DNA from: Spongospora subterranea f. sp. subterranea
Taxonomy: Eukaryota
Assembly: GCA_049724395.1 (NCBI GenBank)
Contig: JAUGWO010000014.1
Location: 1 to 64,000 of the forward strand
DNA: 64,000 bases
Direction of reading: 5' to 3'
In this document: positions 921 to 56,560 of the stretch, piece after piece
How the letters are laid out: every line of letters begins with the position of its first letter
Numbering within the stretch: position 1 is the stretch's first letter
Translations under genes and position numbers: made by a program
Notes under the pieces: model-generated
What the model was told of the DNA's origin: nothing
Seen by the model: the letters and a program-made list of their open reading frames with translations, nothing else
The model's database searches: none

Positions 921-993
921 TGCCAACATCGCGGATCGAACGCGAGACCTTACGATCTTCAGTCGTACGCTCTCCCAACTGAGCTATGGCGGC
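921..993 (-). tRNA. tRNA-Phe(GAA)
   Basis: Minus strand reads GCCGCCATAGCTCAGTTGGGAGAGCGTACGACTGAAGATCGTAAGGTCTCGCGTTCGATCCGCGATGTTGGCA: A box, CTGAAGA anticodon loop, GTTCGATC T-loop and a downstream T7 terminator. One acceptor-stem mismatch. Confidence 0.92.
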
Positions 994-1006
994 AAGTTAC
1001 TGATTT

Positions 1007-4000
1007 TATTGACCGGTAGCGTATAGATTAGGGCGAAAAGCAAAGAAGCGTTTATATAGAAGTATAAGTAGCAATAAGGATCAAACGTACGCTAGGATCG
1101 TCTCTATCTGACACGCCCCTTCGATTCGAAGCTTACTACGACTTCGTCTCGATGTTTCTTGAACGAGTTTGGTCCTAGTGGTTTAGTCAAGATGTCTGCT
1201 GTCATCTTATCTGTACTGCAATATCGAAGTTCGATCGTCAGTTCTTTAACTTGTTCGCGAATAAAATGATATCGAATATCAATATGTTTTGTGCGTCGTT
1301 GTGTAACATTATTCTTTGCTAAGAAAATTGCGCTCTGATTATCTTGAAATATAATCACAGGTTGAGAGGTCTTCTCAATCATTTCTTGATATAAGTTCTT
1401 CAACCAAATAGCTTCCTTTGCTGCATCACAGCAGGCCATATATTCTGATTCAGTGGTTGATAGCGCCACAGATTTCTGCTTTGTTGATCGCCAAGATATG
1501 ATATCTTGTCCGAACATCAATAACCATCCAGTTGTAGACTTGCGATCATTAACGTCGTCAGCGAAGCTGCTGTCGGCATAACAGGCGATTGTCTCATCAG
1601 GCCTGCCAAACATTAGTCCATAATTTGCCGTTCCCTTCAGGTACTTGAATATCCGTTGGACGTATCTCCAGAGTTGTGTTGTTGGTTTCGACACGGATCG
1701 GCTCAGTTTGTTAACGATGTAGGCGATATCTGGTCGTGTCGCGTTCGCAATGAACATGAGTGCTCCTAAAGCTTCTCTAATTGGGTAGATGTTCGGCACG
1801 ATGTTTTCGTCTGTAATTTCGCAACCTGTCGCTGGTGTGGATTCTGGTTTGCAATTTACTTGTTTGAAGCGTCTTAGGAGTTGTAGGATATATGCACGTT
1901 GAGTTATGATTGAGTTGGCTTCTTGGTGTAGGATCTCGATCCCTAAGAACGTTTTTACTTCTCCGAGATCTTTCATTCGGTACGTTGAATGTAAAATCTG
2001 ATCGATCTCTGCGATCTTCACTTTGTCATTTCCAGTTATCAGTAAATCATCAACGTAAATTCCAATAATGATGACCAATTGTCCTGATGTACGATACCAT
2101 ATGCAAGGCTCGTAACCAGATTGTTGTAAATTGGTGTCTTTCAGTGTCTTAAACAGGGTTGTTTGCCATGCACGGCCTGCTTGTTTAAGTCCATATAGGG
2201 CTTTGTTTAGAAAGCAAACTTTGTTCTCCGCCCCTGGCTGAACGAAGCCCTCTGGCTGGGTCATGTAAATGGGTTCCAGCAGTTGTGCGTTTAAATATGC
2301 GGTTCGAAAGTCCCTGTGTGATAGTGGCCAATTGCGTTTCGTTGCAAGGCTCACGATGAAGCGCAGAGATGTGTAAGTTAAGACGGATGAGAAAGTGTCT
2401 GTATAATCAAGGCCATACCGTTGGGTAAAGCCCCTGGCAACGAATCTCGCCTTGAATGTTGGATGACCGTTGTCCATCTTTTTGGTAAATACCCATTTGC
2501 CTCGTATTGGCCTGTGTCCTTCGGGAATAGAGTCAACTAGTGTCCATGTACCGTTTTCTGAGTGTGCCTTCATCTCTGTAGCAGCGGCTCGCATCCAAAA
2601 TGCTGAATCGGGGCTTTGCAACGCGTCTTTAAAGGTATTGGGAACCTCCGATTGTGTTGTGTGGTAGTTGCTGTACTGATCGTGACTGAGCGCCAATGGA
2701 TCCTGATCGTCAATGGGTTCAGGTGGGCGTTGTCGCGGGAAAGATGATTCGTCAAACGTCATGTCGCGTCGAACAAGCACTTGTTTATCGTTATCGCGCA
2801 TGAAGATGTACCCTTTGGAGTATTGGGAATATCCAAGAAAAATACCTGGTTCCGCAGTGGGATCGAGAGAGGTTCTTAATGATGAATTGATATGAGAGTA
2901 TGCGACGCATCCGAAGGTTCGCATATGTCGTACATCCGGTTTGATGTCGCACCATAGTTCATGAGGTGTCCTCCATTGAATCGATTTCGTCGGTAATCGG
3001 TTCTGTGTATAAACGGCATAGCGCACGGCGAATATCCAGAATTCTGGTGGGAGACCGGCATCAATAAGAATCGTTCTCGCCATGTTCATTATCGTCAGGT
3101 TTCGACGTTCTGCTGTTCCGTTTTGTTGAGGGCTGTACGGTACAGTACGCTGGTGTTTAATTCCTTTTATCAGAAGGAAATCACTCACTGTCTTGTTGAC
3201 ATATTCTCCGCCGTTGTCTGTTAATAGTATGCTCAGGCGTTCTTTGGTTTCTGCCTTTCCATCAGCTAGGAATCGTTCAATACTTTCCTTGACTTCTTCG
3301 GGCGATTTGGTTTTTAAAAATGTTACCCAGCACCATTTCGAATAAAGGCAGTTGAATGTGATATAATACTGATATCCTTGACTCGTTGTTAGTAAGGGTC
3401 CTTTGAGATCAGAGCTTACTATTTCGAATTTTCTTGTCGATTTTGTTGTCCGTTCGGATGGAAATGGCTGGCGTCGGGCTTGGCCTAAAGCGCAACCACT
3501 ACATCGCGGTCGTTCGTCGATCATTATATCTATGCCATCGCAGTGTTCTGGTATTTTTCTTAATCTCTCGTCGCAGGCATGACCAAACCTTTGGTGCGCA
3601 TTGTGTAGGTTGATTTTTGCTCGTGATGTTGTTGAGTGTGCTTCATGTTCTCTGATTGGTTTCAAGTGGTAGAGGCCATTCTGATTGTAGGCAGTCAGTA
3701 CTATTTTACCACTTTCGTTTAGGACATGGAGATCCTTTTTGATGCTAATCTGATACCCTTGGGTAGTCAAAGAGTTTGTAGCGAGCAAGGTCTTCGTAAT
3801 ATTTGGAACATGAAGAACGTCCGGTATTGATATTGGTGGGGATTCTTGATAACGTCAGGGTCCCTTTTCCTATCGCTTGCAGGGTTCCACCATTACTAGC
3901 AGTAACTGGTGATGGCCTCTTCAAAGTTTGATATTTTGTGAGAAGATGTTTGTCCTGAGTCATGCTCACGTTTGCACCGCTATCAACGATCATGGCATTC

Positions 4001-5137
4001 TTTGACTTCTCCCATTTTCCTTGCTTTGATATGGTATGGAAACCATTAAACTCTTCTTCCTCTATCTCTTCTTGTTCTTGTTGGTTATGATTTGTATATC
4101 CCTTCCTTTGGTGTTTTCGTAATTCTGGGTGAGCAAACCAACACTGATCGATTTCGTGGTTTGTTTTCTTACATTTTGCGCATGGTTTGTTTTTCTTTGA
4201 GTTGTTCTTCCATCTTTTTGCCTCGGTGTTCAGAGATTTTATGTCTGGATCTTGATTTCTCGGCTGTTTGGTATCATTCATCGATGATACGCCGTCTTGC
4301 TCACTAGACAATAATAAGTTTGTCAGCCTGGGAATCGTTGTCACTTGGGCTGCTCTGGCGGCTGCCTTGATCTGCCGGTATGATTCCGGTAATCCGTCCA
4401 GGGTTTTTACACACACCGCTAGTTCGCTTAGTTCGATGTTGTATACTCGCAAATCATGGTGCAGCTCCACTATCTTGTCCAGGTAGTTCTTCATTGTTTG
4501 GGTAGGTTTCTTGGTACTATGAATAAACTGTAGGAACAGTTCTGATGCTTTTGCTTCAGCAGATGTTTCGTAGATTTCGTTTAATCGACTCCAGATTTGT
4601 CGTGTAGTTGTACATGTTGAGACCTGCTTGTACTGGGCTTGTGTCAGTCTAAGGCTGATTTGAGCTGTTGCCAGTCTATCGTTTCTTATTTCCCAACTTC
4701 TGGTTTGTATCGGGTCGTGTAGTAGGTACGTGTCTAGACCCATTATTACGAATTGGGTTTCTAGTTTTCGTTTGAATTCTTCCCAGTTCTTGCCATCGAA
4801 TTCTGGTATGAGTTTTAGTCCGGCGTTATATTTTGACAATTCGACTTCTTTGTTTAGCCAATGTTGGCTTGATATATTTTCGACTTGTTGTTGTCTGGTT
4901 TCGCGTCGATCTGGGTTTGTGACTTGATCAGAGTCGTCGACGGGGTTTGCGCTTCGTGTTTCGACCATTTGTATTTGTGCTTGGCAGGATTTTTAGCAGG
5001 GTGTGGGACTCTTAATCTATTGACCGGTAGCGTATAGATTAGGGCGAAAAGCAAAGAAGCGTTTATATAGAAGTAAAATAAAACCGTACGAGTAGCAATA
5101 ACGATCAACAGTACGCTATGATCGTCTCTATCTGACA
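1007..5137 (-). mobile_element. Full-length Ty1/copia LTR retrotransposon, copy 1 (4131 bp)
   Basis: LTRs at 5018-5137 (120 bp) and 1007-1113 (107 bp); 5-bp TSD (GATTT on +) at 1002-1006 and 5138-5142; PBS about 5003-5017; PPT GAAGGGGCG; domain order gag-PR-IN-RT-RH. Confidence 0.97.
1104..4968 (-). CDS. copia gag-pol polyprotein, split by a 1-nt insertion near 3843
   Basis: Zn knuckle CAKCKKTNHEIDQC, protease DSGA, integrase HQRFGH...CSGC with TDNGGEY and NGTAER, RT YVDD, RNase H YADSSFA and ADILTK. Confidence 0.95.
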
Positions 5138-5818
5138 GATTTCTCATAAGCGTGTCACGCTTTTGTCGTAATCAATGATCATGTTCTGGCCGTTGCCATT
5201 TTGGAATCAGGTAAATAGTACCATCCTACAGGAAAAAAATTCGTTTCCACAGCAAATGAGTCTTTGGAAAACCCCAAGTAAACGACGCTTGACTCTATCT
5301 GAAAAAGCAAGAGATATAATGGCGAAGTACTCATTTTCCAGCAGTTTTAAATGGCGAAGTTGACGCGCTCAATAGGGCAGCATGGAGTAAATGAATCGAC
5401 GTAGCGATGCGGAGAATGTGGTGAAAGTTTTCTCATTAAAGTTTCTGTACTCTTGTATGTTGTTCAGTTCGAAATTTGTTTTGGCAAATGTGTGTTGTTC
5501 CCCGTAGTGTAGTGCAGACAACTGAGATGGCTTTCATTGCGGTCATCATTCATACTTGGATGCTTCAATCGTTACGCCAAAAGCGGAAATGGGAGTTAGG
5601 TGTTATGTCAGATATGCAGGCTTTACACATATGTCGCTAAGAATTCACTCAGCTGAATCGTTATTGCATGAACCGATCGAGCTGCAAAGCTGTGGCGTGG
5701 TCAGGATTGATGCAGAATGGTGTTTGTAGCTGATGAATGACCCAAAAAAACGCGAAAGTTTTTGCATGAGAAATCGCATCGGAATTATATTCTTTTTAGT
5801 TGTTTTCATGCAGCCTCA

Positions 5819-6951
5819 GAGCGCGTTTGGATGCCACTCAAAACCCGGGTTTTGTCCGTGGAAACCCGGTTTTTGAGTAAACCCGGTTATTTTTTCAAAA
5901 TGGCTTGTTTGGTTGCCTTTTTTTGTGGTTTTGAAAACCCGGATTTTCACTTCAAAACCCGGGTTTTCGAAAACCTATTCGGAGTAGGTTATTGCGTGGG
6001 TTATTTGCTCGCATCCTCTCTGAACCACTCTATGACTATATATCCCATGCCAGGCGCCAAACAAGCTATTCGTGGTTCTCGGGCAGCCTGGGATTTGGAC
6101 AAGGATGCGGTCCTAATCAGTTTAATGCTGGAACAAGCGCGGAATGGGAAACGCGCAGATTCAGGGTTCAAGAAGGAGGCCTGGACGGCAGTTCTGGTTT
6201 CATTCAGATAAAGAATCGGGTTAAATTGGTAATAGCGAAATACTTTGCAAGAAACATTGGCACAGCGATATTTGACCAGCGTTTGTTGTATCAGCTGAAG
6301 AAACAATATTGTTTGTTTCGTCGCCTCAAAGACAACTCCGGTTTTGGTTGGGATGACGACAAGAAAATTCCAACGGCCAGCGATGAAGTCTGGGATGAAT
6401 ACTTGGAGGTCAGGGTGATGGGCATCAACTACTACTGTCCTTAAATCTGTTCTTAGGCTCACCCTAACGCTGCTCTATATCGGTTTACGACTTTGCCGCT
6501 TTTTGAAGAACTCAACGCCCTTTTCGACCAAAGTTGGAAAATAGACACCTGCTCGTCGATATCCATGTTACGTGTGGGCTGTAACAAACCCACACGTACA
6601 ATTTCATGGTTAAGCTTTGCAAAAATATGTGCTGCCATACGGAGTGTCTCATATATACGTCGCGGATGACCAGATGTGAGTTCTTGAACCCAAGCTGCTC
6701 CTCGCAGCGTCGACGTTCTGCAAGGGGATTTCAGGCAGTATGTTTCAGCATACCAATCGGCAACGATGGCGGCAATTTGCCAATTCCGATGATCTACTTC
6801 GAATTCGTCATCTTCCTCTGAAGAGCTCATGTCTTGTTTGGAAGACATAAGCCCGCGCAAACCGGTTTTCGAAAATCCCGGGTTTGCGGGTACCCCAACC
6901 CGGGTTTACATAAAACCGGGTTTATAAAACCCACGGTATCCAAACGCGCTC
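5819..6951 (+). mobile_element. Non-autonomous PIF/Harbinger deletion derivative, copy A
   Basis: TIRs GAGCGCGTTTGGAT / ATCCAAACGCGCTC; TCA/TTA flanks; subterminal AAACCCGGGTTT palindromes; Myb/SANT-like ORF (GFKKEAW...NSGFGWDD) converging on a transposase N-terminus (CRTSTLRGAAWVQEL...LRM) with no DDE core. Confidence 0.85.
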
Positions 6952-7330
6952 TTAGGTGTAATAACTTTGGGAAAGAGTCCAACATGACCTGCCTCCGGAG
7001 CGATACTGATAACATGGTGATGATCGATACGGGTATGATTGTGAGATATCCAGCAGCGCCGATGTTTCATGTCCTTGACGTAACCCGCTGAAGGGAACAC
7101 CAGCAGAATGTTTACAGGACCTTGACCCTGTTTCAAACTAAATGAACAGCATAATAATTTAAACTTGCTTGAACCTGGTCGACGTTTCAAAACACAGAAT
7201 CCGACCCAATGAATGTTCTTGATATCTACAATAATTTTGACCGTATTGATACAATCACGTTGTTCATCATCAAAGCTCCACTGATACCGTCAAGCGGAGA
7301 ATAAAATTTCGCTGGGTTTGCCAAATAGGC

Positions 7331-8493
7331 CAGCGCGTTTGGATACCGTGGGTTTTATAAACCCGGGTTGGGGTACCCGCAAACCCGGGATTTTCGAAAA
7401 CCGGTTTGCGCGGGCTTATGTCTTCCAAACAAGACATGAGCTCTTCAGAGGAAGATGACGAATTCGAAGTAGATCATCGGAATTGGCAAATTGCCGCCAT
7501 CGTTGCCGATTGGTATGCTGAAACATACTGCCTGAAATCCCCTTGCAGAACGTCGACGCTGCGAGGAGCAGCTTGGGTTCAAGAACTCACATCTGGTCAT
7601 CCGCGACGTATATATGAGACACTCCGTATGGCAGCACATATTTTTGCAAAGCTTAACCATGAAATTGTACGTGTGGGTTGTTAGCAGCCCACACGTAACA
7701 TGGATATCGACGAGCAGGTGTCTATTTTCCAACTTTGGTCGAAAAGGGCGTTGAGTTCTTCAAAAAGCGGCAAAGTCGTAAACCGATATAGAGCAGCGTT
7801 AGGGTGAGCCTAAGAACAGATTTGAGGACAGTAGTAGTTGATGCCCATCACCCTGACCTCCAAGTATTCATCCCAGACTTCATCGCTGGCCGTTGGAATT
7901 TTCTTGTCGTCATCCCAACCAAAACCGGAGTTGTCTTTGAGGCGACGAAACAAACAATATTGTTTCTTCAGCTGATACAACAAACGCTGGTCAAATATCG
8001 CTGTGCCAATGTTTCTTGCAAAGTATTTCGCTATTACCAATTTAACCCGATTCTTTATCTGATCCAGTGTATAGTACAAATCGAATTGACTATTCAATGA
8101 AACCAGAACTGCCGTCCAGGCCTCCTTCTTGAACCCTGAATCTGCGCGTTTCCCATTCCGCGCTTGTTCCAGCATTAAACTGATTAGGACCGCATCCTTG
8201 TCCAAATCCCAGGCTGCCCGAGACCTGTTCGGTCAACCACGAATAGCTTGTTTGGCGCCTGGCATGGGATATATAGTCATAGAGTGGTTCAGAGAGGATG
8301 CGAGCAAATAACCCACGCAATAACCTACTCCGAATAGGTTTTCGAAAACCCGGGTTTTGAAGTGAAAATCCGGGTTTTCAAAACCACAAAAAAAGGCAAC
8401 CAAACAAGCCATTTTGAAAAAATAACCGGGTTTACTCAAAAACCGGGTTTCCACGGACAAAACCCGGGTTTTGAGTGGCATCCAAACGCGCTC
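7331..8493 (-). mobile_element. Non-autonomous PIF/Harbinger deletion derivative, copy B (inverted relative to A)
   Basis: Near-identical reverse complement of 5819-6951 with small indels; Myb-like ORF 7810-8205 (-) and transposase fragment from about 7436 (+). Confidence 0.85.
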
Positions 8494-8578
8494 TAAACAC
8501 AACACCAGCGACCCACCGGTAGTTTCCTGCCGAGAGCGGCTGCTCGATTCGGTCTTTGGCTCTGGAACTGAACCTGCA

Positions 8579-8831
8579 CATGTAATCCCATGAAGCGTTG
8601 ATCATGTAATCCCATGAAGCGTTGACCATGTAACCCATGAAACATTGACCATGTAACCCATGAAACGTTAAGCATGTAATCCCATGAAACGTTGAACATG
8701 TAATCCCATGAAACGTTGAACATGTAATCCCATGAAACGTTGAACATGTAATCCCATGAAACGTTGAACATGTAATCGTCCATGAAACGTTGAACATGTA
8801 ATCCCCATGAAACGTTGACCATGTAATCCAT
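8579..8831. repeat. About 24-bp minisatellite CATGTAATCCCATGAAACGTTGAA, roughly 10 copies
   Basis: Direct tandem units with small variants are visible. Confidence 0.9.
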
Positions 8832-8992
8832 AAAATGCTGTACAGTACTATAAACGTTGCGCACGCTAGCACCAAACTCGTCGATTGCGCGACCTGTATC
8901 TATTTGGCGACTCGTGACCTCTGTTGCTATTGCGCGACTCTCTACTTGACGGGTAGCGGATAGACATTATTGTAGATCCCATTCTGGTTTAC

Positions 8993-9642
8993 ATGTCGGA
9001 CCCATCTCGAGACGAGCTTCTACCGAAGCTTGTCGCGTTCGATCTGGATGGGACCTTATGGTATCCAGAAATGTATATGTTGTACGTATTTACACGGGTG
9101 ACCGTCTCCGGAATGTATAATCGCGTTTTAGATGGGGAGGCGGTGGCGCGCCGTTCACTCAACATCGTTCTGGTAACTTGGTTGATCGCAAGGGCCAGAA
9201 GGTATACCTGTTAGGGGATACTCGCGATATATTGTCTGAGATTCATGCTGATCCATGCTGGTCATCCGTCAAATTGGCCATTTCTTCAAAGACCGACGAA
9301 CCATCGTGGGCAGAAATGTGCCTACAGCAAATAGCCATCAAGAAAGGAGTCTTCCTCAAGTCCTTATTTCACTATGAGCAAATCTCGCAGGTTTCGAAGG
9401 TGAATATTTTTTACTGTCGTCACTACCTTCCAAATCAATTTGTTGCTCAGGATCGACATTTCAGAGAACTGCAGAGCCAAACCGGGTTTTCATTCAAAGA
9501 TATGATTTTCTTTGATAATCAGCAGGATAATTGCCAAACCGTATCTAAACTTGGCGTACATTGCGTCTACACTCCTGATGGGTTAACACGTTCTTTATGG
9601 GACGACGGAATATCATCATGGAGGGATTGTTACCATCAATAG
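8993..9642 (+). CDS. MDP1: Magnesium-dependent phosphatase 1 (HAD family), two short introns
   Basis: LPKLVAFDLDGTLWYPEMY, AISSKTDEPSWA and DMIFFDN motifs; GT..AG introns about 9082-9131 and 9400-9450. Confidence 0.85.
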
Positions 9643-10033
9643 ATCGCATGTGCTTTAAATTGATTCACTACATGCAGAAAATAGGCGCGTTGGTCTTGGT
9701 ATGACCAAGCAGATGGTTCATTTACCGCTGCTTGCCTGGTACGGGAACAAGATGTTTATGTTGGTCTATAAATCTTCTAATCTGAGTTATCTGCCTTACA
9801 TTGTGTCGGTGCACATTTTTTGGGCAATTCTACCAATCGTGTTTAGACGTTGTTTATTCTCCGAACGTCAATACGGGTTGCCAGTATTCCGTGTTCGCTG
9901 CTGTTGATTTGCTGCAGCGTCACTTTTTAACATGTACTCTTGTATCTCATATTGACTCATGATGTTGACAGAAATCATTCGACTAGCGCTAATCAATCGG
10001 TCTGAGTCATTTTTTCTTTATTGATCTAGTGCA

Positions 10034-10686
10034 ATGCAGAAACGACATAGGTGGCATTACATCGTGTTGGCCATTGCTGTCATCATCGATATATGCGATG
10101 GGCATAGCAAAGGGGCTGGGACTTGTTTCGCCAGATATGAAGACGTCGCTCAGATGTCCCGCCCTGTGGAGGCTCAGCTCCAGTCTCCTTATGGCTTCGC
10201 GTTGCCAACCAACCAGATCGATCCTAACGTCATCATCCCAATACAGGTCGTTGGTCCCGATCCCATCAAAGGATTTCTGATCTACGCTGAGCCATTCGAC
10301 GTTCACGATGACATACGAGTGGGCACATTTATGCTGCCCCCGTTCAGGCGCGGCAAGGGTAATCTTATTCGCCCATAATATTCAGCAATATTGAATCGTT
10401 CGCCATAGGAATCGGACAGCACCATTTCCTAGAAGCTTGTCGTGATGGACAGCACACGATCACGCACACCAATGCCAATCCGAAACTCGCAACGGATATG
10501 GTGTTCAACTGGCTATCGCCAAGCGATTTCGTTGGCGCTGTCGTGTTCAAGGCCGCGGTCCTGATAACGCATACCGAATGGTATATCATCGAATCGGAAC
10601 CGCTGGAAATCGGTCAGGCTATCAACATGGTGCCCGGGGCTGCATATCCGCAACCTGAACAGGAATTCCAACAATGGGTGTCGTGA
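10034..10686 (+). CDS. Secreted Reeler-domain protein, one intron
   Basis: Signal peptide then HSKGAGTC, KGFLIYA, VGTF, TITHTN and FNWLSPSDFVGAVVFKAAV, as in Reeler domains. Confidence 0.75.
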
Positions 10687-11014
10687 TCTCATCAGTGTTT
10701 GAATTTCGTATCATATCTATACTCAATTATTTATTCTAAAAGTATCGGTTCAACATTAATCCTTTCGGGTAGCGCCTTAGACCGGTTGGTCTGTCGGGAC
10801 TAATTCGACGTCATTCTGTCGTAGTTCTGGCCGCAGTTATCGGTTAAGATTGACTTGATGCGGAACCATCTTTAGGAAAGAGCATTAGTCACGGGTTGTA
10901 TCAATGCCATTTCGATGAGTCACGAGTAGTAATGGTGATGGAGCCGGTCTTGGGATCGGAACGGAGGTCAAAACCACAAAATCTTCAGGCTGCTGACGTA
11001 TATCATTTCTGTCG

Positions 11015-12379
11015 ATGTCGCAGGCAATGATGGTCGTGATCACGATCGTATTCATTGCCGTTCCCCATTGCCACGCCATTCTTCACGGCAATGACGATGA
11101 TATCGAGGAATGGAACCCCCCATCGCATGGCGCGACTGGGAATCCGCCGCCGACCCCGGTGTCGCCACAGAGTACGACCGGCAGAACGAATACCGCGTCG
11201 TCAGTACCGAGCGTGGCGTCACCCTTGAGAACGGGCAGCAGTAGCTCGGGATTACCTACACCAACGACCAAGTCCACCAACTCAGCTCCATCCACAGCGA
11301 ATACCTATCATCCAACAGCCCCGGCAACGACCAACGGCAACACCATGGTAGCGAGACCACAAACGACCACGACACCGAGTTCAACCAGCAATGGTAAGCC
11401 GCAAACGACCGCAACACCGAGTTCAACCAGCAATGGTAAGCCGCAAACGACCACGACACCGAGTTCAACCAGCAATGGTAAGCCGCAAACGACCACGACA
11501 CCGAGTTCAACCAGCAATGGTAAGCCGCAAACGACCACGACACCGAGTTCAACCAGCAATGGTAAGCCGCAAACGACCACGACACCGAGTTCAACCAGCA
11601 ATGGTAAGCCGCAAACGACCACGACACCGAGCTCAACCAGCAATGGTAAGCCTCCCGCTACGGCGCCAGGACCGAAGGCAACGCCAACGAGCTCAAGCAC
11701 CAATGCGTCAACCCCCACAACTGGCACCTATACACCGCAAACTTCTGGTTCACCAGGTAGTCCAAGCACCTGGACGACGACATCGAATTCGAAAACCGGC
11801 CAGTCCGGGTCATCTTCAACATCGGCGACATCCGTCGGCCAGGCAAGGAATAGGACGACGACCACGACAACGGTATCGCATGCGACGCCTAGACAAGTCG
11901 CCCGGCCAACTTCGCCAACTCCATCAAGAGCAAGCTCGCCTAGTTTGTATGGTGCACCGTCAACAACAAGCAGTATGTATGGGGCGATATCCACGATCAA
12001 GCGCCCAGTTTCGAAATCAACGCTGTACGCGCCCACCACCACATCCAGGCAAGTTCCCCCAGCTTCAAGCCTATATTCGGTGACAAAGAGGCCCTCGGCG
12101 CCAGTGTATTCGCCGGTCGTACGCAAGCCAGGACAGGTCTACAGTCCTGTCAAGGCGCATTCGCCACCGTCGCCACAGCTCTACAGTCCTGTCAAGGCAC
12201 CGTCGCCACAGGCACCGTCGTCACAGGTCTACAGCCCTGTCAAGGCACCGTCGCCATCCAAGAAATCAACTCCAGCGCCATCGCCCGCAACCTACTCAAA
12301 GCAAGAAATGAAAAGCTCATCAGGCAAGGCGAAACTGGGAGCGGTTATCGCCATTCTGGTTGTGGCCCTTACGTTTTGA
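11015..12379 (+). CDS. Secreted Ser/Thr/Pro-rich mucin/extensin-like surface protein, probable GPI anchor
   Basis: 454-aa ORF with signal peptide, 14-aa repeats (PQTTTTPSSTSNGK), YSPVKAPSP motifs and a hydrophobic extreme C-terminus. Confidence 0.8.
   Translation: MSQAMMVVITIVFIAVPHCHAILHGNDDDIEEWNPPSHGATGNPPPTPVSPQSTTGRTNTASSVPSVASPLRTGSSSSGLPTPTTKSTNSAPSTANTYHPTAPATTNGNTMVARPQTTTTPSSTSNGKPQTTATPSSTSNGKPQTTTTPSSTSNGKPQTTTTPSSTSNGKPQTTTTPSSTSNGKPQTTTTPSSTSNGKPQTTTTPSSTSNGKPPATAPGPKATPTSSSTNASTPTTGTYTPQTSGSPGSPSTWTTTSNSKTGQSGSSSTSATSVGQARNRTTTTTTVSHATPRQVARPTSPTPSRASSPSLYGAPSTTSSMYGAISTIKRPVSKSTLYAPTTTSRQVPPASSLYSVTKRPSAPVYSPVVRKPGQVYSPVKAHSPPSPQLYSPVKAPSPQAPSSQVYSPVKAPSPSKKSTPAPSPATYSKQEMKSSSGKAKLGAVIAILVVALTF
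11357..11650 (+). repeat. 42-bp coding tandem repeat, about 7 copies
   Basis: CCGCAAACGACCACGACACCGAGTTCAACCAGCAATGGTAAG units. Confidence 0.9.
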
Positions 12380-12841
12380 AACAACTCAACTAAAAACTCT
12401 TGTTATATTTTTCATCGTAAACGTTGTATCTCCCTTTTGTCTGCGCCGTTCCGGTATCTGCGCTTGGCTGAACACGTTATGGTGGGAGTTTTCCCAGGTG
12501 GTTGGCAAGTTTGCTGATGGTGGCCATCAGCCACTTCATTGTGCACAACCTATATTTTCTGGCGGCTGGGAGCGTCTCAAAGTTTAAAGCAAAATTGCTC
12601 ATACGATATAAACGTATCTCGTAAGATGTATCCAGATTAGGTTGCTGCTTTGGTGCTCATCGCAACGCTGCGGGTTTCATTTTGGGACACAGCAAAGTGA
12701 GACCATTTCACGACAAATTGGGGAGAAATCTGAAACAATTTGAATGACGTTTTTCTACCTATCTGTGCTTGAATTGCATTCACGAGTATTTGCCAACACC
12801 GATTGGCCATTCCAGTCCACCAGATTCTTTGTTTCGTTTAG

Positions 12842-25957: not shown

Positions 25958-26128
25958 AATTTTTGTTTTGTTGAAAAAAATGACCAAAATATGGAATCCG
26001 AAAGCGCAATGCAATCCAGCTGTAGAAGATATTTTGTTACCTTTGCGCGTGCCTGATTATCCACCTCTCAAAATTGACGGATTCTATGGCGCCGTAGTTC
26101 TCCGTCTGGTGTCTACCGACATTTCAAC

Positions 26129-38052: not shown

Positions 38053-38918
<866 letters not shown>

Positions 38919-40404: not shown

Positions 40405-40476
40405 AGGCCCCGCGCAGACTCGAACTGCGGTTGCAGGAATCAGAACCCTGCGTGATAACCCCTACACTACGGAGCC
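40405..40476 (-). tRNA. tRNA-Gln(CTG)
   Basis: Reverse complement of the 25886-25957 gene, followed by a T6 terminator. Confidence 0.93.
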
Positions 40477-40489
40477 AATATATATCAAA

Positions 40490-41900
40490 TAGACTATTGT
40501 ACATGACATTTGTGTACGACCTACGGTAGTGGCACATGTTTTTGTTTTTTGTGAGTTAAGGCAAGTAGTCTTAGCACGCCCCTTCGTCGTCACCTTCCTT
40601 GACTCCAAGGTTGACCTTGGTGTCTGTGTCAGTAAAGGAGTCTCGATGTTTTGTGAGCAACGATCTTGCCAAGCGCCTTAGTACGAATATTTCCGCCCAA
40701 CATGGGACGTTTTCTCACCATATTCACGCGCGATCATGTTGGCTTGGATCTGTTCGCGAACAACATGATATCGCACGTCAAAAGTTGGTTCGACGTTTGT
40801 CGACTGTGTTATTGCCTATTGGCCATAAAAACTGTCTCTTGATTCGATTGAAGGATAGTGACTGCTGGATCTGGGCTACTTGATAGTATCTGAACCGGTA
40901 ATTGTGTTGTTCCAACAGATGTACGAGATATTGACAGTGCGCCATAGGTCAAGGCAGTCACCACTGCTTCTCCTTCTCAGGGCGTGGATATGCGCCTTCG
41001 CAATCGAGTGGCGTTCACAACGTCACGGTGCGAAATGCGACGAGTGTCAGACGTGCAATCGCCAGGGCAGGTGACGCGTCCGGTAAATCAGATCAACTGG
41101 TCGCCATCGTCCTGGGCAGTCCTAGAACGATCGGACAAACGTATTCAATTGTTGAGCAACCTGTACGATATCGGCTTGACTAACCCGATTGACGGCCAAG
41201 GAATCTGTGTCGACGACGTTGATGGAACTGATGGCGCTTGATGTAAGCACCAACCGATTATCGAGTGCGCCGCACACCATCCGTTTTCCCCTACAAAGCC
41301 TCAATCAAGGCATTTGCATCCGGCATGGTGTGTTCATGATCAGCCCGGGTTCGTCCCTCATATCAAGCGCGTCGGGTCGCATGGCTTCATTCGCCGAAAT
41401 CGTGTAATGGTCGCACTGGCGCCGAGTTGCTCATGGAACTGCCTGTTGGGTTCATTCATTGTTCCTTCCTTGGTTGCGTCGCGACACGCCATGTTATTCA
41501 CATTCGGTCGTTGACAGTGCGAGAAGTTTTCTGGTGCAAAACTTTGATTGACTTGGGTGATCGTCGTATCCTCGCACCCGGTTATTATCGAATTATCGCC
41601 ATTAACTCCAATTACGATAGTAAGCCGTTATTCCACCACCTTCAACGTATCCCATCATCCCAAATCTATACTCATGCATTTCAAGCGTTTTGGCGAAAAC
41701 GGTTTCGAACGGTCGCTTGAATACTTGCCACAAATGCTTGAACATCTTTACCACAATCTATCGACCTTGTGGCAACACATTTGTCTCATTGAATACACCA
41801 AAGTTCCCCCTTGAAAAGCCGCGAATACGTGGCAGGCGTGATCCGTATTCGGAAGAGTGAGATGTGGCTTTAGACAGCTGCCCCTTTCCACTTTCAACAC
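40490..41900 (-). mobile_element. Highly degenerate copia 3' half (RT-RNase H, PPT, 3' LTR) of a related family
   Basis: Minus-strand peptides LTIVIGVNGDNSIITG (like IIIGIYVDDLLITG), QSNQETVFMA, FDVRYHVVREQI and TKALG..KHRD; the same PPT CGAAGGGGCG is followed by TG at 40576. Confidence 0.75.
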
Positions 41901-44005: not shown

Positions 44006-44032
44006 GGCGTCATTCGTTTCTTCTGACTCACG

Positions 44033-45303: not shown

Positions 45304-46694
45304 TTAGGGGTCGTTCTTGTCATTATCACCTTCCTTGGGCTATTGATTGCCGTACTCGTAATTCGCATCGGTTTGGTCCTCGTACACCGCTATCTTTACA
45401 CCTTCAGCGCTCCCCAAGAGTCGCCACTTTCAAGGGATTTCGGGCGAGAGCTGTTGTTTTTTACTTTCTGAATTCAGGTCAGTTGACTCGTCGTTATCAA
45501 CTAGTTTTAGATCGGAATCGAATAACCGGAGTGGGCCAACCTTTAGCTGCCAGCAAAAGTGGTCGACCGTTGTTTCCCAGTGATCTGGCGTTTTTAACTC
45601 TGCCAGTTTTCATGTCCGCTCATGCCTGCCTTCTATTGTCTTTGATCTTTACTTGATCAACTCGCAAACCGCAGCAATGGTCAATTGATTGCGAGAGTCA
45701 TATTTTGGCCCGCGTCTTGTTGTATTTCGGAAACGATCTCTCTCTCTCCTAGCACAATTTCGATCATGTCTGTGCTCCAATCGGGGTTTCTCGACAACGG
45801 CCAGTGGCCCTGCGAACCGTCTGAAAGCGGAAGCTCGTCCTGCGTTCACTGATTCAGGGGACAGGCGTTTACTGGACCGACACTCCCTCACGGAATTGCG
45901 ATTCCTCCGGCGATTTCTTGAGCTTGGTGAATGATTTCTCGCATTTCACCTGAACCGTCCTCTTTTGCGTCGTCTGGAACAATGTTTGTTTCTCCCTATG
46001 TTCGTTCGCACATACAGCGCGTGAACCTGTCTGCAACTTGCTATGGCCTTCCGCATTGATTGCTGTGGGCCAACAAATGGCGTGCGAAAATATAAATAGC
46101 AATGCACCAGTGGTAAAAACGGTCCGCTGAGCAAGTCCAATGTGTACATGCACGCTCTGCGCAAATCACAGTTTTCGTTGGCCTGGCAGGCACTCCGATG
46201 ATCCTGTTCGTGATATTCGGCCTTCGCCGAGATACGTCCACCTTTTTTACATCCCGCTATAGTATGGCTTCCAACCACACTAGATACTATTCACGTTGTG
46301 ATCGGTCGCGTTGGTTGCACAAGGGGCACGGGAGTCGCAGACGAATCCATACCAAATCAAGCCGGACCTCACCACTCCGCACACAACTTGATCCGTTGAC
46401 ACCGCAGACGTTAGATTTCACTATACCTATATAGTGACAGGATTCGATTTCGGCAGGTTTTCGATCATCTTGTGGGCTGGCGTCATCGCCTCGATCGACG
46501 TCGACGTTCCAGAAATCTCCATCTTTTGCGCCAGCTGAAAGTCAAACACAGTCAGCGCGCAGTGCGTAGCCCCAATCCGTTCGTACACTCTGCACTCGCG
46601 CACTTTATTCGCTAAGTAAGTACCTAACCAACAGCTGGCTCATATCTGTCAAAGCGAATATTGTTGATATTCGCGGCCGTCGCCACCGAGGGCG

Positions 46695-48336: not shown

Positions 48337-48555
48337 CGCAATATTGCCTGCATGTCGACCCCTTTTGACTGGCAACACGAGATAAAGATATTATTCGCGC
48401 GTTTTTCTCAAATTGTATACATACCATAATTTTGAATAGTTCATGTGTCCTTGACCTTGGATATGTTCGGATTTTGAGGTGTTCGCATGATGTACTGTGA
48501 CCGCATGGCGCCATGAAGCAGTCTGTTTGATCGATATTATTTGCCGTTAAATGTC

Positions 48556-50696
48556 ATGAAGACGTTTTCAACTCTGGTTTTCCATCTGTGGTTACAAATC
48601 CATATAGCTGCTGCTTCGTCCGTCTGGACTGTCTCCCCGTGGTCGCGTTGCTCAGCGCCCTGTGATGTTGGCGCATCAACACGGCAAGTTACCTGCCGTT
48701 CATCTATCAACAATGAGTTTCTACCTGCATCAAACTGTTCTGATCCATCGCCGAGCGCAATGAAGGCGTGCGTATCTCCGTCTTGTCAATGGGCGTGTGC
48801 GCCCAATTCATCTTTCCCCATATGTCTATCATCTTCCTTACAACAGGTATGGATCGACTTACCAATTTCTGAAGAGTATCAGTTCAACAATGCTGAAACC
48901 CTTTGACTACTTACGCCATCATGCTTTAGAAGTGTTCCTTTGAAATCATCTCCTCAAAAATTTCCGCTTTTCAGGTCCCAGACGCTCACTGTACGAATAG
49001 CGGCAAACCTGGAAAATTCATGGACAGCTTAGTGTGCCCATACAGTCTGTCGGAGCTGTTTACAATCACTCCTTCATGCGATGGTTGCCCAGCAGAAGCC
49101 ACAACTTACTCATGGATGACGCTGTCCCCATGGTCATCATGTCGGCCAATGTGCGGGTCAAGCCGATCGTCGTGGCGTCATATTGCATGCGTGGACTCGT
49201 CTGGGACCATTTCTGAGGATACGATGTGTTCTGGTTCCCGTCCCGACGACCATCGCCCGTGCCCAGATACAGAGGCGTGTCATGTAGCTGGTAATCGTTG
49301 TCATAACGTGGATGGAGAAGTTGTGGCCGATGTCTGGTGTAAGCCGTTCCAACGTAAGGCTCCACCAGAAGTTCATCCAGGTTCTAACTATGTGAAAAAA
49401 AGATGAATGGAACATCGAATCAGATTGGTCTCCCTGCGATGTCTCCACCTTTGTCCTCTCGACCCGACGTGTTGTCTGTGGCTCTGAACCGTGCACGTCC
49501 CCACCACCCGAGTCAGTCCGGCAATGCCCTGAGTCATCGCCACTGTTCTATATCAAGGACAGCGAGGCGCCTCTGTGCAGTGACGCATGCGGCATCAGCT
49601 ATCAGTCCAACGCGTTTTCATGTTCCTTACAGGACATGATGTTACCCAAAGAAGTCTGTCAGTCCGCAGGTGAAACAATTCACAGGCCACAGTTGAACTG
49701 TAACATCACCGGCTGTTTTACTCTCTGGATTGTCTTCATCTTTTCACCTCAGTGATATACGTTCTTCACCCTTTTCTCCAATTGCTGTTGCTGTACTGGG
49801 AATTTCGGTTACAAACTTTACATTTCATTGATTGCGGTGCACTGGCACACTGTCACATCAACGTCGATTCGGTTACAGCTTGCAGACATGGTTATGTTTC
49901 ATATCTAGATAGACGATCTCAAGTTACTTTTCACCTTCATTCATTCGTCAGTTCATTGATTTCCTCAATAACTTCGCATGTGCTTGTGGTCGTTTTGAAT
50001 GGGCTGTGAATTTTGCAGGTGTTCCAGATCCGCTGCAGACAGTATGCCCAGACCGGGGCATGTAATTCTGGCGACTCGGGTAGTTGCGACTTGCGCGCCA
50101 GGATGAACGTATCCGTTCCTAGTGGGGTCTTTTCGGTTGATCAGGTGCAAACATTGTTCATTGCGGATATGGAATCTGCGATTCCGCAATCCGATTCAGT
50201 TAATGTGAACTCGGTCGTTAAGCTCAACGTCGACCGTTATGGAATCGATTTCACCGTTACGTGCAAAGACTTATCATATCCGGTCGCCGATTCAATAGCA
50301 GGTCAACTTCTAGATGTCAACAGCACATTACGTCAAGGAATTATTACTCGGGGAGTACAAGGCGGATTTGTTCCTGTGAAAAATGATGAGAAATCTCCAG
50401 AAGGTTGAAACTCTCTTTGTTGGGCTAAATTGGAGACTTAAAACAATTTTTCAGGTGATGGATATGAGCCCGTGTATGCAGTGGTTGCAGTGTTCGTTGT
50501 CGCGTTTGTTCTGGTGATGGCACTAATAAAGCGCTGCATGCCGAAGCAGCACCAGTTAGTCAGTACAAGTGTAGACGCAAGAGACCTGGATCCTTCCTTT
50601 TCCAAAATCGCCATCTCAGCATTCGCATGCTATCAGGTTGCCCAAATTCAGTGCCATTTCGCAAGCGCGGCGTACATCGTTCGAAGTACCAGTTAA
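48556..50696 (+). CDS. Type-I membrane protein with several ADAMTS-type thrombospondin type-1 repeats
   Basis: Signal peptide; WTVSPWSRCSAPC...RQVTC and WMTLSPWSSCRPMC...RHIAC; C-terminal TM YAVVAVFVVAFVLVMALI. Confidence 0.75.
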
Positions 50697-51322
50697 TCTG
50701 AAATCTCATGGATTACCATAGAAAAGCACAGTAAAAACCACTCTTTGTGCCATTTTGTTAACGATTTTTAGAGGGTTTATGTTAAGGGGCGACGCACATA
50801 CGCAGCAACGGATACAACTTTGGTTTTTCTTCGATGATAGAATGTTTCAATGCGATTTGAAAAATATCGATAGTTTGGCTTTCATCGAACGTATTGCGAA
50901 GATCAGAGTGGCTATATATTGTTTGTGGTGATGATCTTATACTGCCATTACGAAATGACGCGCTGGTTGGTTAACATTGCAAGAGCGTTTTCTTGCTGCG
51001 ATCTCGCGAAAACACACGTTTAGGTTCGGGAGAGCAAGACATGACTTATTGGAAACCTTCTTTACTGGGATTGGGGACCAAACAAGTACTATTTTGAAAT
51101 GACTTTTTTGTTCGAGTAGGTTGTTGATAGCATGATAGTTACTAGGACGCCTGATGCTTTTATTTCTGTCAAACTTTGATCCCAGCAAAGTATGGTATGA
51201 TCACTCACGAGTCTTACGAAGCCCACCATTGTTATCGCCAATTGGTTGCTTCGAACTTGTTATATAACTCGCTATGTGCTGCTGCGAAGGCGGATGTATA
51301 GTGTAAAACAGTCACCGTTTAT

Positions 51323-53647
51323 TTAAACCTCCGAGAACCCAGGCTGCTGATGAAGAGCGACAATGGCGTCATATCGGGCAATTTTTTTTGTTGGTCCGTA
51401 GCCGATGCCATTTTGAGATGTTCCGTCCCATTTGGGAAGTGAGGCTTTCACAGTAAAAATGGGGCAGTGAGGAGGTCCAGTTCTTGATTCCTCAGAGTAG
51501 AGTACCCGTTGTTGAAGACGACCGATAATTGGATCTGGCTTCAGTTGCTTCGCCAACGTGAGGAGATCGCGAGACCCACAAATCCGTTTGTGCCCCTTTT
51601 GATCTACCGCATCAGGAACATCGGAATCCGCTTCTAACTGGTTGATCTGTTGAATCGCTTCGTTCATATTGTCTTCGCGAAGCACTAACCCCTCAACGTG
51701 CATGTCTCGACGCTCACGAACCATACTCAGATATCGAGCCGACTCGTTAGAACGGATCCGTCCACGAATCTGAACGAACGAGATCATGCTATTCGGAAGA
51801 CAGGTGCAGATAACCAAACAGCATGCAGGAATATCAACTCCCTCACCGCAGACCGACGTCGACACAACTACGTTGATCACTTGGTCGCGGAACTTCGACA
51901 GAACGGTTTTCTGCTGAGCGAGTGTCATTTCCGAGATACCGACCATAGCTTCTGCCTTGATAAACGGAATCCTGGAAATGTGTTTAACCAATTCTATAGC
52001 AAGACCTCTGGTTGACACGAAAATAAGTGCCGAAAAACCTTTGGGATCGGCATCATAATGCTGCGTAACAAGTTCCTCGATTTTGTTGACAACAGAACCT
52101 TGAAAATTGGAATCAGGGACGACAGCGGAAATAAACTCCTTTGCTCCAAAGCAATTTTTGGACTTGATGGTCTCGCCGACTTTGTCCCAACTCCATTTTA
52201 GCCCAAGTTCATTCAACTCGGAGCACGCGTTATAGACCTCAACTAAATGCTCGGATAGAGGCTCGTCCTCAGGACGCAACAATTGGGTCATCGCGAAAAA
52301 AGGAGCAGACGGGAACGTTACTGACTGAAGAGGAAGCAACTGGTTGAAATATCGCTCAGCAATATCCAGAAAATATTTTCGAATCCGCTCGAGAAGTTCA
52401 TGCTCGTGTCGATTCTGCTTTACTACAACCTGAAGTAATGGCGTCCGAGGCGATTTTTTACGTAGAGCGGCCAAAGTGGCCTTACTTGGAGCGATTGGCC
52501 TGGCAATGAGCCTTTTCAGAAGCTTCTCGAGCTTCTCACTGGTCTGAAGAAGGTCAAGCTCTCCCGCTGGCGAGGCCGTCAATGCCATAATCTTGGGCCG
52601 ATGTGCACCGTACAATTTGTGGAGTAAAGAGTTGAACAAATGATTCTTAGCGCAATGGTGAGCCTCGTCCATCACCAATGCACAGATCCTACCGAAGTCC
52701 AACAAATTCTATAAACAACAAAAACGTGAAAAGATGACCAGAAAATTTGTTATGCGCAAAGATCTCGTTTTTAAAAAAAAAACATAACCATCACTGAAAA
52801 TTTGGGAGGATGGAGATGCGAAACTAACCTGTTCAACTGCATTGAGATAGGAACCGGCGGTGGCAACGATAATATCAGCGCTACGAAGCTCAGCTATATG
52901 GTTGATATTGGGTTTGGATGGAAGCATGCTGCCAACTAAGATCCTGATCGATAGATCGCCGAGTTCATTGATGAGCACGGTATATTGTTGGATCGCTAAC
53001 GCGTTGGTCTCGACAATAAATAGCGCTGAAAACAGCGGGTTTAATTGAAGCATCCGCCTGATGAACATGGCGCTGATCAGCGTCTTGCCGAAACCAGTGG
53101 GTAAGAATATCAAAGAATTATCTGGCATGGCCATGGCGCGCTGGTACATATCCACCTGATAATCGTATGGTGACGATTTGGTTAATTGAGGGACTGGAGT
53201 ACTCGTATCAACTAATGTTAAATCTTCATTAAAGGTCTGCTTGATCAGGAATGATGTGTCGCTTGGTGGCTGATCTGGTTGACAAACTTGACAACTGGCC
53301 CATTCTCGTTGCTCAACAACAGTTTTCCAACTGGAGATCGGTACGGAATTGTACGTAACTGTCGTCGCTTTCAGCAATGCACCAAAGTCACCAGAATCAA
53401 ATTGTTTGATTGCGCCAATCTTATATTTGCACGCAGCGCAACATAGGTCTCCAATTTTCGAATATGGGGCCTTCGGGGGACGTGGATTCAACAACAAGAT
53501 CGCGATGGTCTCTGGAATTTGATCATTACTGCCGTGGTCGTCATACTGATACCCAACGTGAATCCCTGAAAAGGTCTTGAACCGGCACAGCTGCGTCAAA
53601 TCGGACTCTACCATGGCAAAACATGATCGGCATTCAACCGACGGCAT
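51323..53647 (-). CDS. RIG-I/MDA5-like SF2 RNA helicase with an N-terminal Zn domain and a C-terminal dsRBD (about 734 aa; intron 52709-52828)
   Basis: PYDYQ, LPTGFGKT, DEAHH, LTASP, IFVSTR, TSVCGEGVDIPAC and QIRGRIR; dsRBD GPPHCPIFTVKA...GPTKKIARYDA; a phase-0 GT..AG intron joins the two ORFs. Confidence 0.88.
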
Positions 53648-54919
53648 GACAATACAAAACTACAGTAGCCTGGCGTAATCGATTTATGATAATTCAACAG
53701 CCGCAATCGGAATTTCAGTATCGGTCCGGCAAAATGGCGCTACTGTACGTCGCAAGTGAGACTGGGCGATGGCGCGACTGTGCGTCGCGGATGAGACTGG
53801 GCGACTGGCAGTTGCACGAGAAGCGGTATCAAAAGAAGTGCCGTAACCTCTTCAACGAACCGTTCGCTTCATCAAACGCTCTTTTTAATCTGTGGAGAAA
53901 GTGACTACTGTACCCAGTTTCCAAGACATGACCTCGTATCTCATCGGCGGCGATATTCGCTTCATTGAGCGAAGTGAATCCAATCAGGCCGTATTGCATT
54001 TGTGATATCGAGACAACGCCGCCCATCACGTATTTTGTTCTAGGCTCTTCAGTGCCTATCCTAAATATCACAGAATAACTCGAAGATAAAATTATGATTT
54101 GCCCGAAAACTACAGCATTTCATTCACCGCAATGACAACGCCTCTGGTTCCGACGTTTCCTCAACCGATGTTGGCCATCAATCAAAGTGTTTATGGATAT
54201 TTCTGAGTTAATGGCATATCCTGCGATTACTCTCGACACGTCTTCTTGACTCAAGGCGGAGAAATAGCGATATCGTATCAAGAAATGTTTTTCATTTGGC
54301 TTTGCTACTTCAAAAATCACAATTCGGGATCAAGGCACTGATTTTGAACCCGGAATGCATTTTGGTTGCCGCGATTTGATTGTCGATAAAATATAGGTTT
54401 GGATAACCGATATGTTTGGTCATGATTCGATTGTTCAGCTGCGGCTAGCCATTTTAAAGCCATTGTCAAATTTGACAATGCACACAGAACAATAGTGAGT
54501 ATAGACCTCAGAGGTGTGACATTTTTTCCCAGCGAAGTCCAACGTGGTGGTTAATAAGGGTGGCCGACACTGGGGTAATGAGTAATAACGCGGCACGGTC
54601 AATGACTTGAGGTTTCTCGAAATATCGGTGTTCGGCAAAAAACTCGCATAGAGAATGAACCCGATAATATTGGTCTATTTTCCCTTCCATGACAAAAACA
54701 CTTAACAAATTTGGTGGTATTGAGAGCATAACAGATTTGACAGGAAGGCGCAGCATCAAGTTTGGTGTTGTTCCTCGGCAAAATGAATAACTGGTTTCAA
54801 GAGCTCAAAAACAGACCGGTCACGAGATGTTGCTGCAGCAACTCAGGCAACGGTCGAAGGCACAAAAGCAGATCTTCGGTTGCGCCATACTTGGAGATGA
54901 ATAACTCATGCAAAACAGT

Positions 54920-54991
54920 AGGCCCCGCGCAGACTCGAACTGCGGTTGCAGGAATCAGAACCCTGCGTGATAACCCCTACACTACGGAGCC
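54920..54991 (-). tRNA. tRNA-Gln(CTG)
   Basis: Reverse complement of the 25886-25957 gene. Confidence 0.92.
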
Positions 54992-55002
54992 TTGTAACTG
55001 AA

Positions 55003-56560
55003 TGTTACCAGAAAATGCTCTAACATTTTCACACCGACGTTACTTAACACAGACAGCACTGTACACTCTATGATTCTCTGAGCGGGAAATCTTTATGTCC
55101 GCCAGTATGGTAGTACAGTACAGTGCACCCAACTGGCGGACAGAATCCTTTCCATCCGCCAGTCTCGTCACATAGTGTAGGTACTGCTGGCGGACAGAAT
55201 CCAGTCTGTCCGCCGGCGGACAGAAAGATTTCCCGTTCTCTGAGGGTATTAGGTCGGTTCGCCATCGACCTTCTTGAAAGGTTAAGAGTTCCAACTCTCG
55301 CAGCTAAGGATCAAGTGAACCATGCCCGACGAGGAAAGGACCGCACGACGCGTCCAACGGACAGAAGCCAATGATGCTCAAGAAGAGCATGGACACGTAG
55401 AAAGTGTTCATCTTCTGAAGACAGAAGTAAACCTTCAACCGTACGCAACGGTTTGAACCTCATACCCGAGTTCAACGGTAAGAACTGGGAAATTTTCAAG
55501 AGGAAACTGGATCACAGTTTATCCGCATGGGCATCGAAACTTACCTCGAATTTTTACCAGGCACATCAACGGCCAAAATAAGAAACGACCGAATCGCTTA
55601 CGCAGAAGTTACTATGAGACTTTCTCAACTTGCATACAAGCAAATTGCATCATGCCGCTATACCAAGGACGTGTGGGCAAAATCGTGTGAAATCTATAAC
55701 GAGAAGAAAGATGCTGAAGCTTCAACAAAATTCATAAAGTTCATCGAGGACAAGAAAAGTTCCACCGAGACAGTCAAGATCTACCTACTGTAGACCGCTT
55801 GATTGAGACGTATTATGATCTCGTCACGCTAGGCATAAACATGGGCGAAACAGCCCTATGCGCGAAGGCCCTGCACGGCCAATCACAAGATTATGAAGCC
55901 AAAGCGGCAGCTCGAGCTTCAGAGATCAAGACGATCGCGAAGCTGACGAATCATCGCGACAGAACGGGAGAAGATTGGCAACAAGCCAAAACGTGCAGAC
56001 ACCGAAGTTTGAAGCCGACGTTGCGGTAGAAAACACATGGACAAAGAAAGAAGAAGCATTGCACAAAGTGTTCACAGGACGGCCACGACAATCGTGAATG
56101 CTGGCGCCTGCATCCTGAATTGAAGCCAGACTGGCTAAAAGAGAAGGAGAAGAACCACACCAAATCATCGGCGGGTTTGAATTCAAGGGATACCGCGTTG
56201 TAACGTTCAACAACGCTAGTGCTGTAGATGGATATCTCATTGATAGTGGAGCAGATGTTTCCATCACGAAGGACCGAGCAATTCTCCAGAGTTATCAAAG
56301 CATGTCCAAACCGGTCTTTATACAGGCATGCAATGGCCAGGTATCCAAGGCAGCGGGGAAAGGTACATTGATACTATCAACAGAGCCGCTAATCACTCTG
56401 CCAAATGTCCTGCACGTGCCAAGCGCGACAAACACGCTGATTCTGGCACATACCCTTACGAAACTAGGCCTGACCATCGTCATCAAAGACACTATGCACA
56501 TCGCGACTGTAGATGGAGAGACCATCTTGACGGCGAAGATGAAGAACGGTCTGTGTGTCA
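55003..56560 (+). mobile_element. Degenerate copia 5' half (LTR, PBS, gag, protease) of a related family
   Basis: PBS-like GGTTAAGAGTTCCA at 55280; NGLNLIPEFNGKNWEIFKRKL, AAARASEI, YLIDSGADVSIT and LPNVLHVP align with copies 1 and 2; contains stops and frameshifts. Confidence 0.85.
55083..55235. mobile_element. 153-bp Mutator-like MITE inserted in the LTR
   Basis: 21-bp TIRs CGGGAAATCTTT(A/C)TGTCCGCC and a 9-bp TSD TTCTCTGAG at 55074-55082 and 55236-55244. Confidence 0.85.

Follow-up and report, generated by a model that had tools for sequence, protein, structure and literature searches.

The stretch analysed here, which we call the window, is the first 64,000 nt of contig JAUGWO010000014.1 from Spongospora subterranea f. 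sp. subterranea, and our subject is a lineage of Ty1/copia long terminal repeat (LTR) retrotransposons lying directly upstream of its transfer RNA (tRNA) genes. The analysis covers the window together with contigs of public sequencing runs, and all fractions given below describe these data and are not genome-wide values. The region is contained in 6 runs from 3 studies, and one of these runs (X1) is possibly the same sample as the window. A fragment of AP-2 mu is 83% identical to its match in Plasmodiophora brassicae, with the remaining 12 matches reaching 59% at most, which places the host among the plasmodiophorids; on the sequence of this protein the host is a plasmodiophorid, in agreement with an earlier note on this DNA that had taken it for a protist. 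The GC content of the window (46.9%) is compatible with the 45.7% given for S. subterranea in the available text of PMC12883290.

ARAGORN and Rfam agree on four tRNA genes in the window, one tRNA-Phe and three tRNA-Gln(CTG) genes that are mutually identical in sequence. These genes and the two young elements are as follows.

921-993, minus strand: tRNA-Phe(GAA), target of copy 1 (ARAGORN, Rfam)
994-1006, minus strand: 13-bp gap from copy 1 to tRNA-Phe, with the target site duplication (TSD) AAATC at 1002-1006
1007-5137, minus strand: copy 1, whole (paired LTRs, TSD)
1007-1113, minus strand: 3' LTR of copy 1, variant B, 107 nt, TG..TA ends
1104-3854, minus strand: pol frame of copy 1, with gag-pre-integrase, integrase core, SH3, reverse transcriptase (RT; RVT_2) and an RNase H-like end (Pfam)
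3745-4992, minus strand: gag and protease of copy 1 (Pfam)
5003-5017, minus strand: primer-binding site (PBS) of copy 1, complementary to a CTT-bearing anticodon arm
5018-5137, minus strand: 5' LTR of copy 1, variant A, 120 nt
5138-21735, no strand: inverted segment between copies 1 and 2, 16.6 kb (LTR swap, X3 empty-site contig)
21736-25871, plus strand: copy 2, whole (paired LTRs, TSD)
21736-21842, plus strand: 5' LTR of copy 2, variant B
21843-21857, plus strand: PBS of copy 2
25752-25871, plus strand: 3' LTR of copy 2, variant A, identical to the 5' LTR of copy 1
25872-25885, plus strand: 14-bp gap from copy 2 to tRNA-Gln, with the TSD AAATC at 25872-25876
25886-25957, plus strand: tRNA-Gln(CTG), target of copy 2 (ARAGORN, Rfam)
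40405-40476, minus strand: tRNA-Gln(CTG), target of copy 3 (ARAGORN, Rfam)
54920-54991, minus strand: tRNA-Gln(CTG), target of copy 4 (ARAGORN, Rfam)

Insertion upstream of tRNA genes

The outer ends of copies 1 and 2 are fixed, because each copy has paired LTRs and the 5-mer AAATC borders all four of their outer ends. The earlier note had placed copy 1 at 13 bp upstream of tRNA-Phe and copy 2 at 14 bp upstream of tRNA-Gln, and the LTR pairs with their AAATC duplications confirm both distances. Its wider claim, that all four tRNA genes carry a member of a copia clade directly upstream, likewise holds on the tRNA calls, the TSDs and the nhmmer matches described below; over the four elements the distance ranges from 11 to 18 bp, with the young copies at 13-14 bp. 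Zones of 20 bp upstream of the four tRNA genes make up 0.125% of the window, and the estimated chance of two insertions falling within them is 1.6e-6, a figure uncorrected for the finding having been selected as striking. Mobile remnants from outside the clade lie 1589 bp (gypsy), 4109 bp (LINE-like) and 4825 bp (inverted repeat) from the nearest tRNA start. The 300-bp downstream flanks of the three Gln loci are no more similar to one another than 200 shuffles, which rules out a segmental duplication of these loci and makes the insertions there separate events.

The Pfam domains of the young copies run gag, protease, gag-pre-integrase, integrase core, SH3 and RVT_2, which is the copia order and bears out their assignment to Ty1/copia; the gypsy order, with the integrase after RT and RNase H, is absent from them. 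The RNase H end is recognised from motifs and from full-length homologs and has no Pfam row of its own. Paired LTRs, a PBS, a polypurine tract (PPT) and a 5-bp TSD are all present, as in Ty1/copia elements. The LTRs begin with TG and finish in CAATA, an end placed by the TSD and by the empty site described below, and hence have TG..TA termini, where TG..CA is usual, but not universal, for Ty1/copia.

The interiors of copies 1 and 2 differ in 10 alignment columns, comprising 3 substitutions and indels of 1, 1 and 5 nt, and because of these indels each copy is frameshifted. At the gag/pol break of copy 1, near 3844, the two copies differ by a 1-nt indel, and copy 2 is in frame at that site; full-length relatives are single open reading frames (ORFs), and a programmed gag-pol frameshift was rejected on these grounds. 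The LTR variants are exchanged between the copies: copy 1 has variant A at its 5' end and variant B at its 3' end, and copy 2 has them the other way round, which is the pattern expected from a crossover between two inverted copies. In run X3, on a comparison by eye, one contig links 25872 straight to 5143-5172 in reverse complement, with a single AAATC. This contig is the empty site of the copy 2 insertion at tRNA-Gln, which is absent from that sample, and since it carries one AAATC it confirms the TSD of copy 2. Together with the swapped LTR variants it shows that the segment 5138-21735, which begins at its left end with the sequence that originally flanked the tRNA-Gln at 25886 upstream, is inverted here, either by recombination or by misassembly. 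Contig depth over the element is ~10-70 times that of the flank in runs X1 and X2, a ratio of depths that does not equal copy number.

The two remaining tRNA-Gln genes adjoin older, incomplete elements.

40477-41621, minus strand: copy 3, decayed (nhmmer, motifs)
55003-55279, plus strand: 5' LTR of copy 4 (start estimated)
55280-56616, plus strand: PBS and frameshifted gag-protease remnant of copy 4, cut off by a gypsy remnant

An nhmmer DNA profile built from copy 1 and two relatives matches copy 3 at 40859-40575 (E=2.8e-9) and copy 4 at 55449-56567 (E=7.6e-85). Copy 3 retains RT traces (41621-41465), RNase H (40859-40590) and the PPT of the clade, which ends at 40577. Because this PPT ends 100 bp from tRNA-Gln, the 3' LTR would lie entirely inside that 100-bp gap, from 40576 to approximately 40495-40490, and the distance would be 18 bp if the LTR finishes in CAATA like the young LTR; neither a second LTR nor a TSD survives in copy 3. 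Copy 4 points away from its tRNA gene. The PBS of this element is at 55280; the start of its LTR is placed at 55003 from a TG and from a length of ~115 nt without an inserted miniature inverted-repeat transposable element (MITE), with 54993 as an alternative start, and a second LTR was not found. For both copies the earlier note was right to see a related element beside tRNA-Gln, while the distances it gave (13-18 and 11 bp) are estimates, with no TSD to fix them. The LTR candidates of copies 3 and 4 align to the young LTR no better than shuffles, and a permissive DNA alignment of copy 1 with the copy 3 region is at noise level only. Among the 120 listed homologs and copy 1, copy 3 scores best against P0002 and P0001, and copy 4 against P0003 and P0006 on another branch than copy 1; copy 4 is a remnant of a different family of the same clade. 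All three PBS-motif matches in the window, and all three PPT-motif matches, fall in the four elements.

Two later insertions have altered copy 4. The palindromic MITE in its LTR (55083-55235) lies between 9-bp direct repeats, has no other copy in the window and is, by the rule for 9-bp repeats, presumably Mutator-like. A gypsy integrase remnant at 56580-58200 (Integrase_H2C2, rve, SH3_Tf2-1) truncates the element.

Evidence from outside the window comes from contigs of runs X1 and X2 aligned to 25722-25990. The loose-end rows examined (12 of 41) comprise 8 element variants or PBS, 1 merged row (2 contigs, agreement 0.67) that is unreadable, and 3 single-contig flanks. In two of these three readable LTR flanks a tRNA 5' end follows at 13 bp, one in each orientation. 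In the first, the 3' LTR end is followed by 13 bases and then TCCGAAA; in the second, on the other strand, the 5' LTR end is followed by 13 bases (4 of them tool-aligned, +/-1) and then GCCTCTA. Both have the 11-nt A-box, matched exactly, at position 8 of the tRNA and are recognised by the 5' end and A-box alone, not as whole genes; the strict A-box occurs in the window at only 7e-5 per position, and two such boxes in register are therefore not attributable to chance. With these flanks, six of six distances are below 20 bp, two of them (copies 3 and 4) estimated. The alignment of X1 and X2 contigs reports no LTR joint to another tRNA-Gln gene, and of a 66-nt contig that crosses the copy 2 junction just 24 letters belong to the LTR, fewer than the bridging rule requires.

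Clade, primer and integrase

A search with pol returned 454 matches, of which 10 are full-length, at 47-70% identity, and carry no lineage name. In a quick IQ-TREE analysis of 77 RT-RNase H rows (the top 45 matches, named picks and loci, with 6 short matches dropped), the 10 homologs, 4 loci from JGI metagenomes and copy 1 form a 15-row branch with an SH-aLRT of 100; this clade has no named member in a tree that contained no curated lineage references. All four elements of the window fall in, or nearest to, this one clade. The four loci come from a search of JGI metagenomes with the clade alignment, in which 15 of 293 candidates are relatives and 4 of these are clade members. The same alignment found no relatives among 60 candidates in IMG/VR or 24 in GTDB, and the LTR pattern had 0 matches in the JGI metagenomes.

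PBS and PPT are common to loci L001, L002 and L003, with the PBS at 4488, 4351 and 1695, respectively. At L003 1540-2086, an LTR of the L001 family is followed by a PBS and a different gag start, so that either the element is chimeric or two sequences were joined in assembly. The sequence to which the PBS is complementary, GTGGGACTCTTAATC, contains a CTT anticodon loop; going by known tRNA sequences, the partner is probably tRNA-Lys, priming as a half molecule. The predicted primer is accordingly worded here as half-tRNA-Lys(CTT). The clade resembles Osser, Bryco, Gymco-II and Bianca in having a PBS complementary to the anticodon arm and not to the tRNA 3' end. It differs from them in its TA LTR ends and in this predicted primer, which is not among the half primers described in the available text of PMC6317226 (half Met for Osser, Bryco and Gymco-II; half Ile for Bianca).

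The predicted integrase (mean pLDDT 83.9) consists of zinc-binding, core and SH3 parts with an unstructured tail of ~40 aa, and a fold search with it returned ordinary retroviral-type integrases. No chromodomain was matched by Pfam, and the long C-terminal region of Ty1 integrase, with its Pol III-binding domain, is absent; the 635-aa Ty1 protein aligns only over its residues 54-294. The linker from SH3 to RT measures 47-62 aa in all 11 rows of the clade; in the other copia rows, 24 in number, it is always 73-180 aa long. There are 24 positions nearly invariant within the clade and rare outside it, which may be targeting residues or may simply reflect lineage history.

Targeting mechanism and alternatives

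Precise insertion near tRNA start sites is a known strategy of gypsy elements. Ty3, Tj1, Tyl3/Tyl6/Ylt1 and Tca8-beta insert at most a few bases from the tRNA start site, in both orientations and leaving the tRNA gene intact, and the precise LTR targeters listed in Table 1 of PMC5911963, as far as its available text goes, are all gypsy, whereas Ty1, Ty2 and Ty4 use ~1 kb. The lineage described here is like the Ty3 group in its near-fixed short distance upstream, in both orientations, of an intact tRNA gene, but has copia domain order and no chromodomain, the part of Ty3 integrase that contacts Brf1 (bioRxiv 2021.07.27.453949). With Ty1, Ty2 and Ty4 it shares the copia superfamily and a position upstream of genes that RNA polymerase III (Pol III) transcribes; it lacks their ~1 kb nucleosomal spread, reached via Pol III subunits, and their long tail. 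Both insertion orientations have also been described for DGLT-A, which is a gypsy element of Amoebozoa, whereas the present elements are copia, lie in a rhizarian host and have a narrower spread; Dictyostelium discoideum itself has no copia elements (PMC5006619). The earlier note's comparison with Ty3, DGLT-A and Ty1 agrees with the published reviews. In the available text of the literature searched (including PMC5911963, PMC5006619, PMC7175516 and PMC13746701), no copia element that inserts with start-site precision is described, nor is there any account of plasmodiophorid elements that target tRNA genes; Repbase was outside the search and an earlier record there is possible. The available main text of bioRxiv 10.64898/2026.10.14.759018 does not mention tRNA. 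A copia element that targets the start site is thus probably an undescribed variant of a known strategy.

The integrase is probably tethered by TFIIIB, the Pol III initiation factor, which is the most likely cause because the insertion distances match. Once tethered, it would cut at the tRNA transcription start site, as Ty3 does; the young copies sit 13-14 bp upstream of the mature 5' end. Since neither the long Ty1 tail nor the Ty3 chromodomain is present, any contact with the host would be made by the integrase core, by the SH3 domain or by the tail of ~40 residues, and would be of independent evolutionary origin. The independently evolved, Ty3-like targeting in a copia clade that the earlier note proposed is supported by the domain order, the single clade and the two 13-bp flanks outside the window. 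The broader reading, which we favour with some reserve, is that a widespread unnamed copia clade (half-tRNA-Lys primed, with TG..TA ends and a minimal integrase) independently evolved base-precise targeting of Pol III start sites, through a surface of the integrase that has no relation to the chromodomain of Ty3 or the tail of Ty1. The observed features behind the TFIIIB reading are the insertion position, both orientations, the 5-bp TSD, the empty site, the copia domain order and the TG..TA ends.

Several points weigh against the TFIIIB reading. TFIIIB as the host factor is something we infer, and no TFIIIB gene is among those identified in the window. Distances are counted to the mature tRNA 5' end and not to a mapped Pol III start site, the gaps of copies 3 and 4 lack TSDs, and the flank evidence derives from the 12 loose-end rows. 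One of the three readable flanks is not tRNA-like; two in three fits, because insertion in both orientations would make half of the flanks non-tRNA, and this flank may represent the far side of an insertion, for which such sequence is expected. The 15 JGI loci contain 0 tRNA genes, and the 4 from the clade are collapsed or partial and without genomic flank; they are uninformative and not evidence against targeting, but as relatives from other samples have no flanks, targeting across the clade rests on copies 3 and 4 in one genome. A faint RNase H-like trace at 13905-13990 (nhmmer, E=0.41) has no RNA gene within 13700-14700. Finally, the TSD is one and the same 5-mer in both young copies, suggesting a sequence component in site choice.

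The tether might instead be Pol III itself or TFIIIC, through a narrowed version of the Ty1 route. Ty1, the only characterised copia tRNA targeter, does bind Pol III subunits, and its integrase is the best sequence match in the PDB. This alternative is nevertheless unlikely, as the Ty1 window spans ~1 kb in nucleosomes against a spread of 1-2 bp here, the long Ty1 C-terminal region is missing from the clade integrase, and Pol III, which sits on the start site, is described as excluding Ty3 integration there.

The shared TSD would also be accounted for if the integrase recognised the DNA itself, by its sequence (an AAATCA-like initiator) or its shape (bent, open DNA at the start site), with no protein tether. 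Both young copies duplicated AAATC followed by A, the third flank starts with AAAAT and the copy 4 gap contains TTCAG. The window, however, holds ~230 AAATC sites (0.0018 per position) with no other clade insertion, and the flank in reverse orientation keeps the distance but not the sequence, making recognition of DNA alone improbable. The absence of any targeting, the pattern being due to random insertion and later selection in a genome dense with genes, to local duplication or to an assembly artefact, has in its favour the low number of cases, the inversion, relative to X3, of the segment that separates copies 1 and 2 (the assembly or the genome being rearranged here) and a best run that is possibly the window's own sample, but is very improbable and already largely refuted, since selection could not produce a 1-2 bp spread at different tRNA genes, the flanks of the Gln loci are mutually unrelated, the empty site and TSDs make true integration evident, and two further tRNA flanks come from runs of two studies.

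If base-precise start-site targeting is true of this clade, it would be the first precise tRNA-targeting copia lineage and the first tRNA-targeting element in Rhizaria, with the most compact safe-harbour integrase known. A copia element with 1-2 bp precision in a third eukaryotic supergroup would make such precision independent of the gypsy integrase. The small integrase (~360 aa), with its 24 clade-specific positions, suits the mapping of a targeting surface, and insertions that are polymorphic at predictable sites could serve as markers in poorly studied plant-parasitic protists.

Other features of the window

A large inverted repeat at 5818-8494 has arms of 725, 260 and 128 nt and Myb/SANT-like frames, and is presumably of the PIF/Harbinger type. 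The LINE-like remnant (59100-60700) is a by-eye call with no Pfam match. Tandem arrays occupy 8551-8778 (24-nt units), 11315-11694 (42-nt units, within a 460-aa ORF that has no Pfam match) and 62507-63970 (38/53-nt units). Positions 396-565 and 58421-58590 are inverted copies of each other, 170 nt long and 98% identical, and probably represent another repeat family. A Dicer/RIG-I-like helicase gene lies at 51323-53659 on the minus strand, its apparent in-frame stop falling inside a likely intron.

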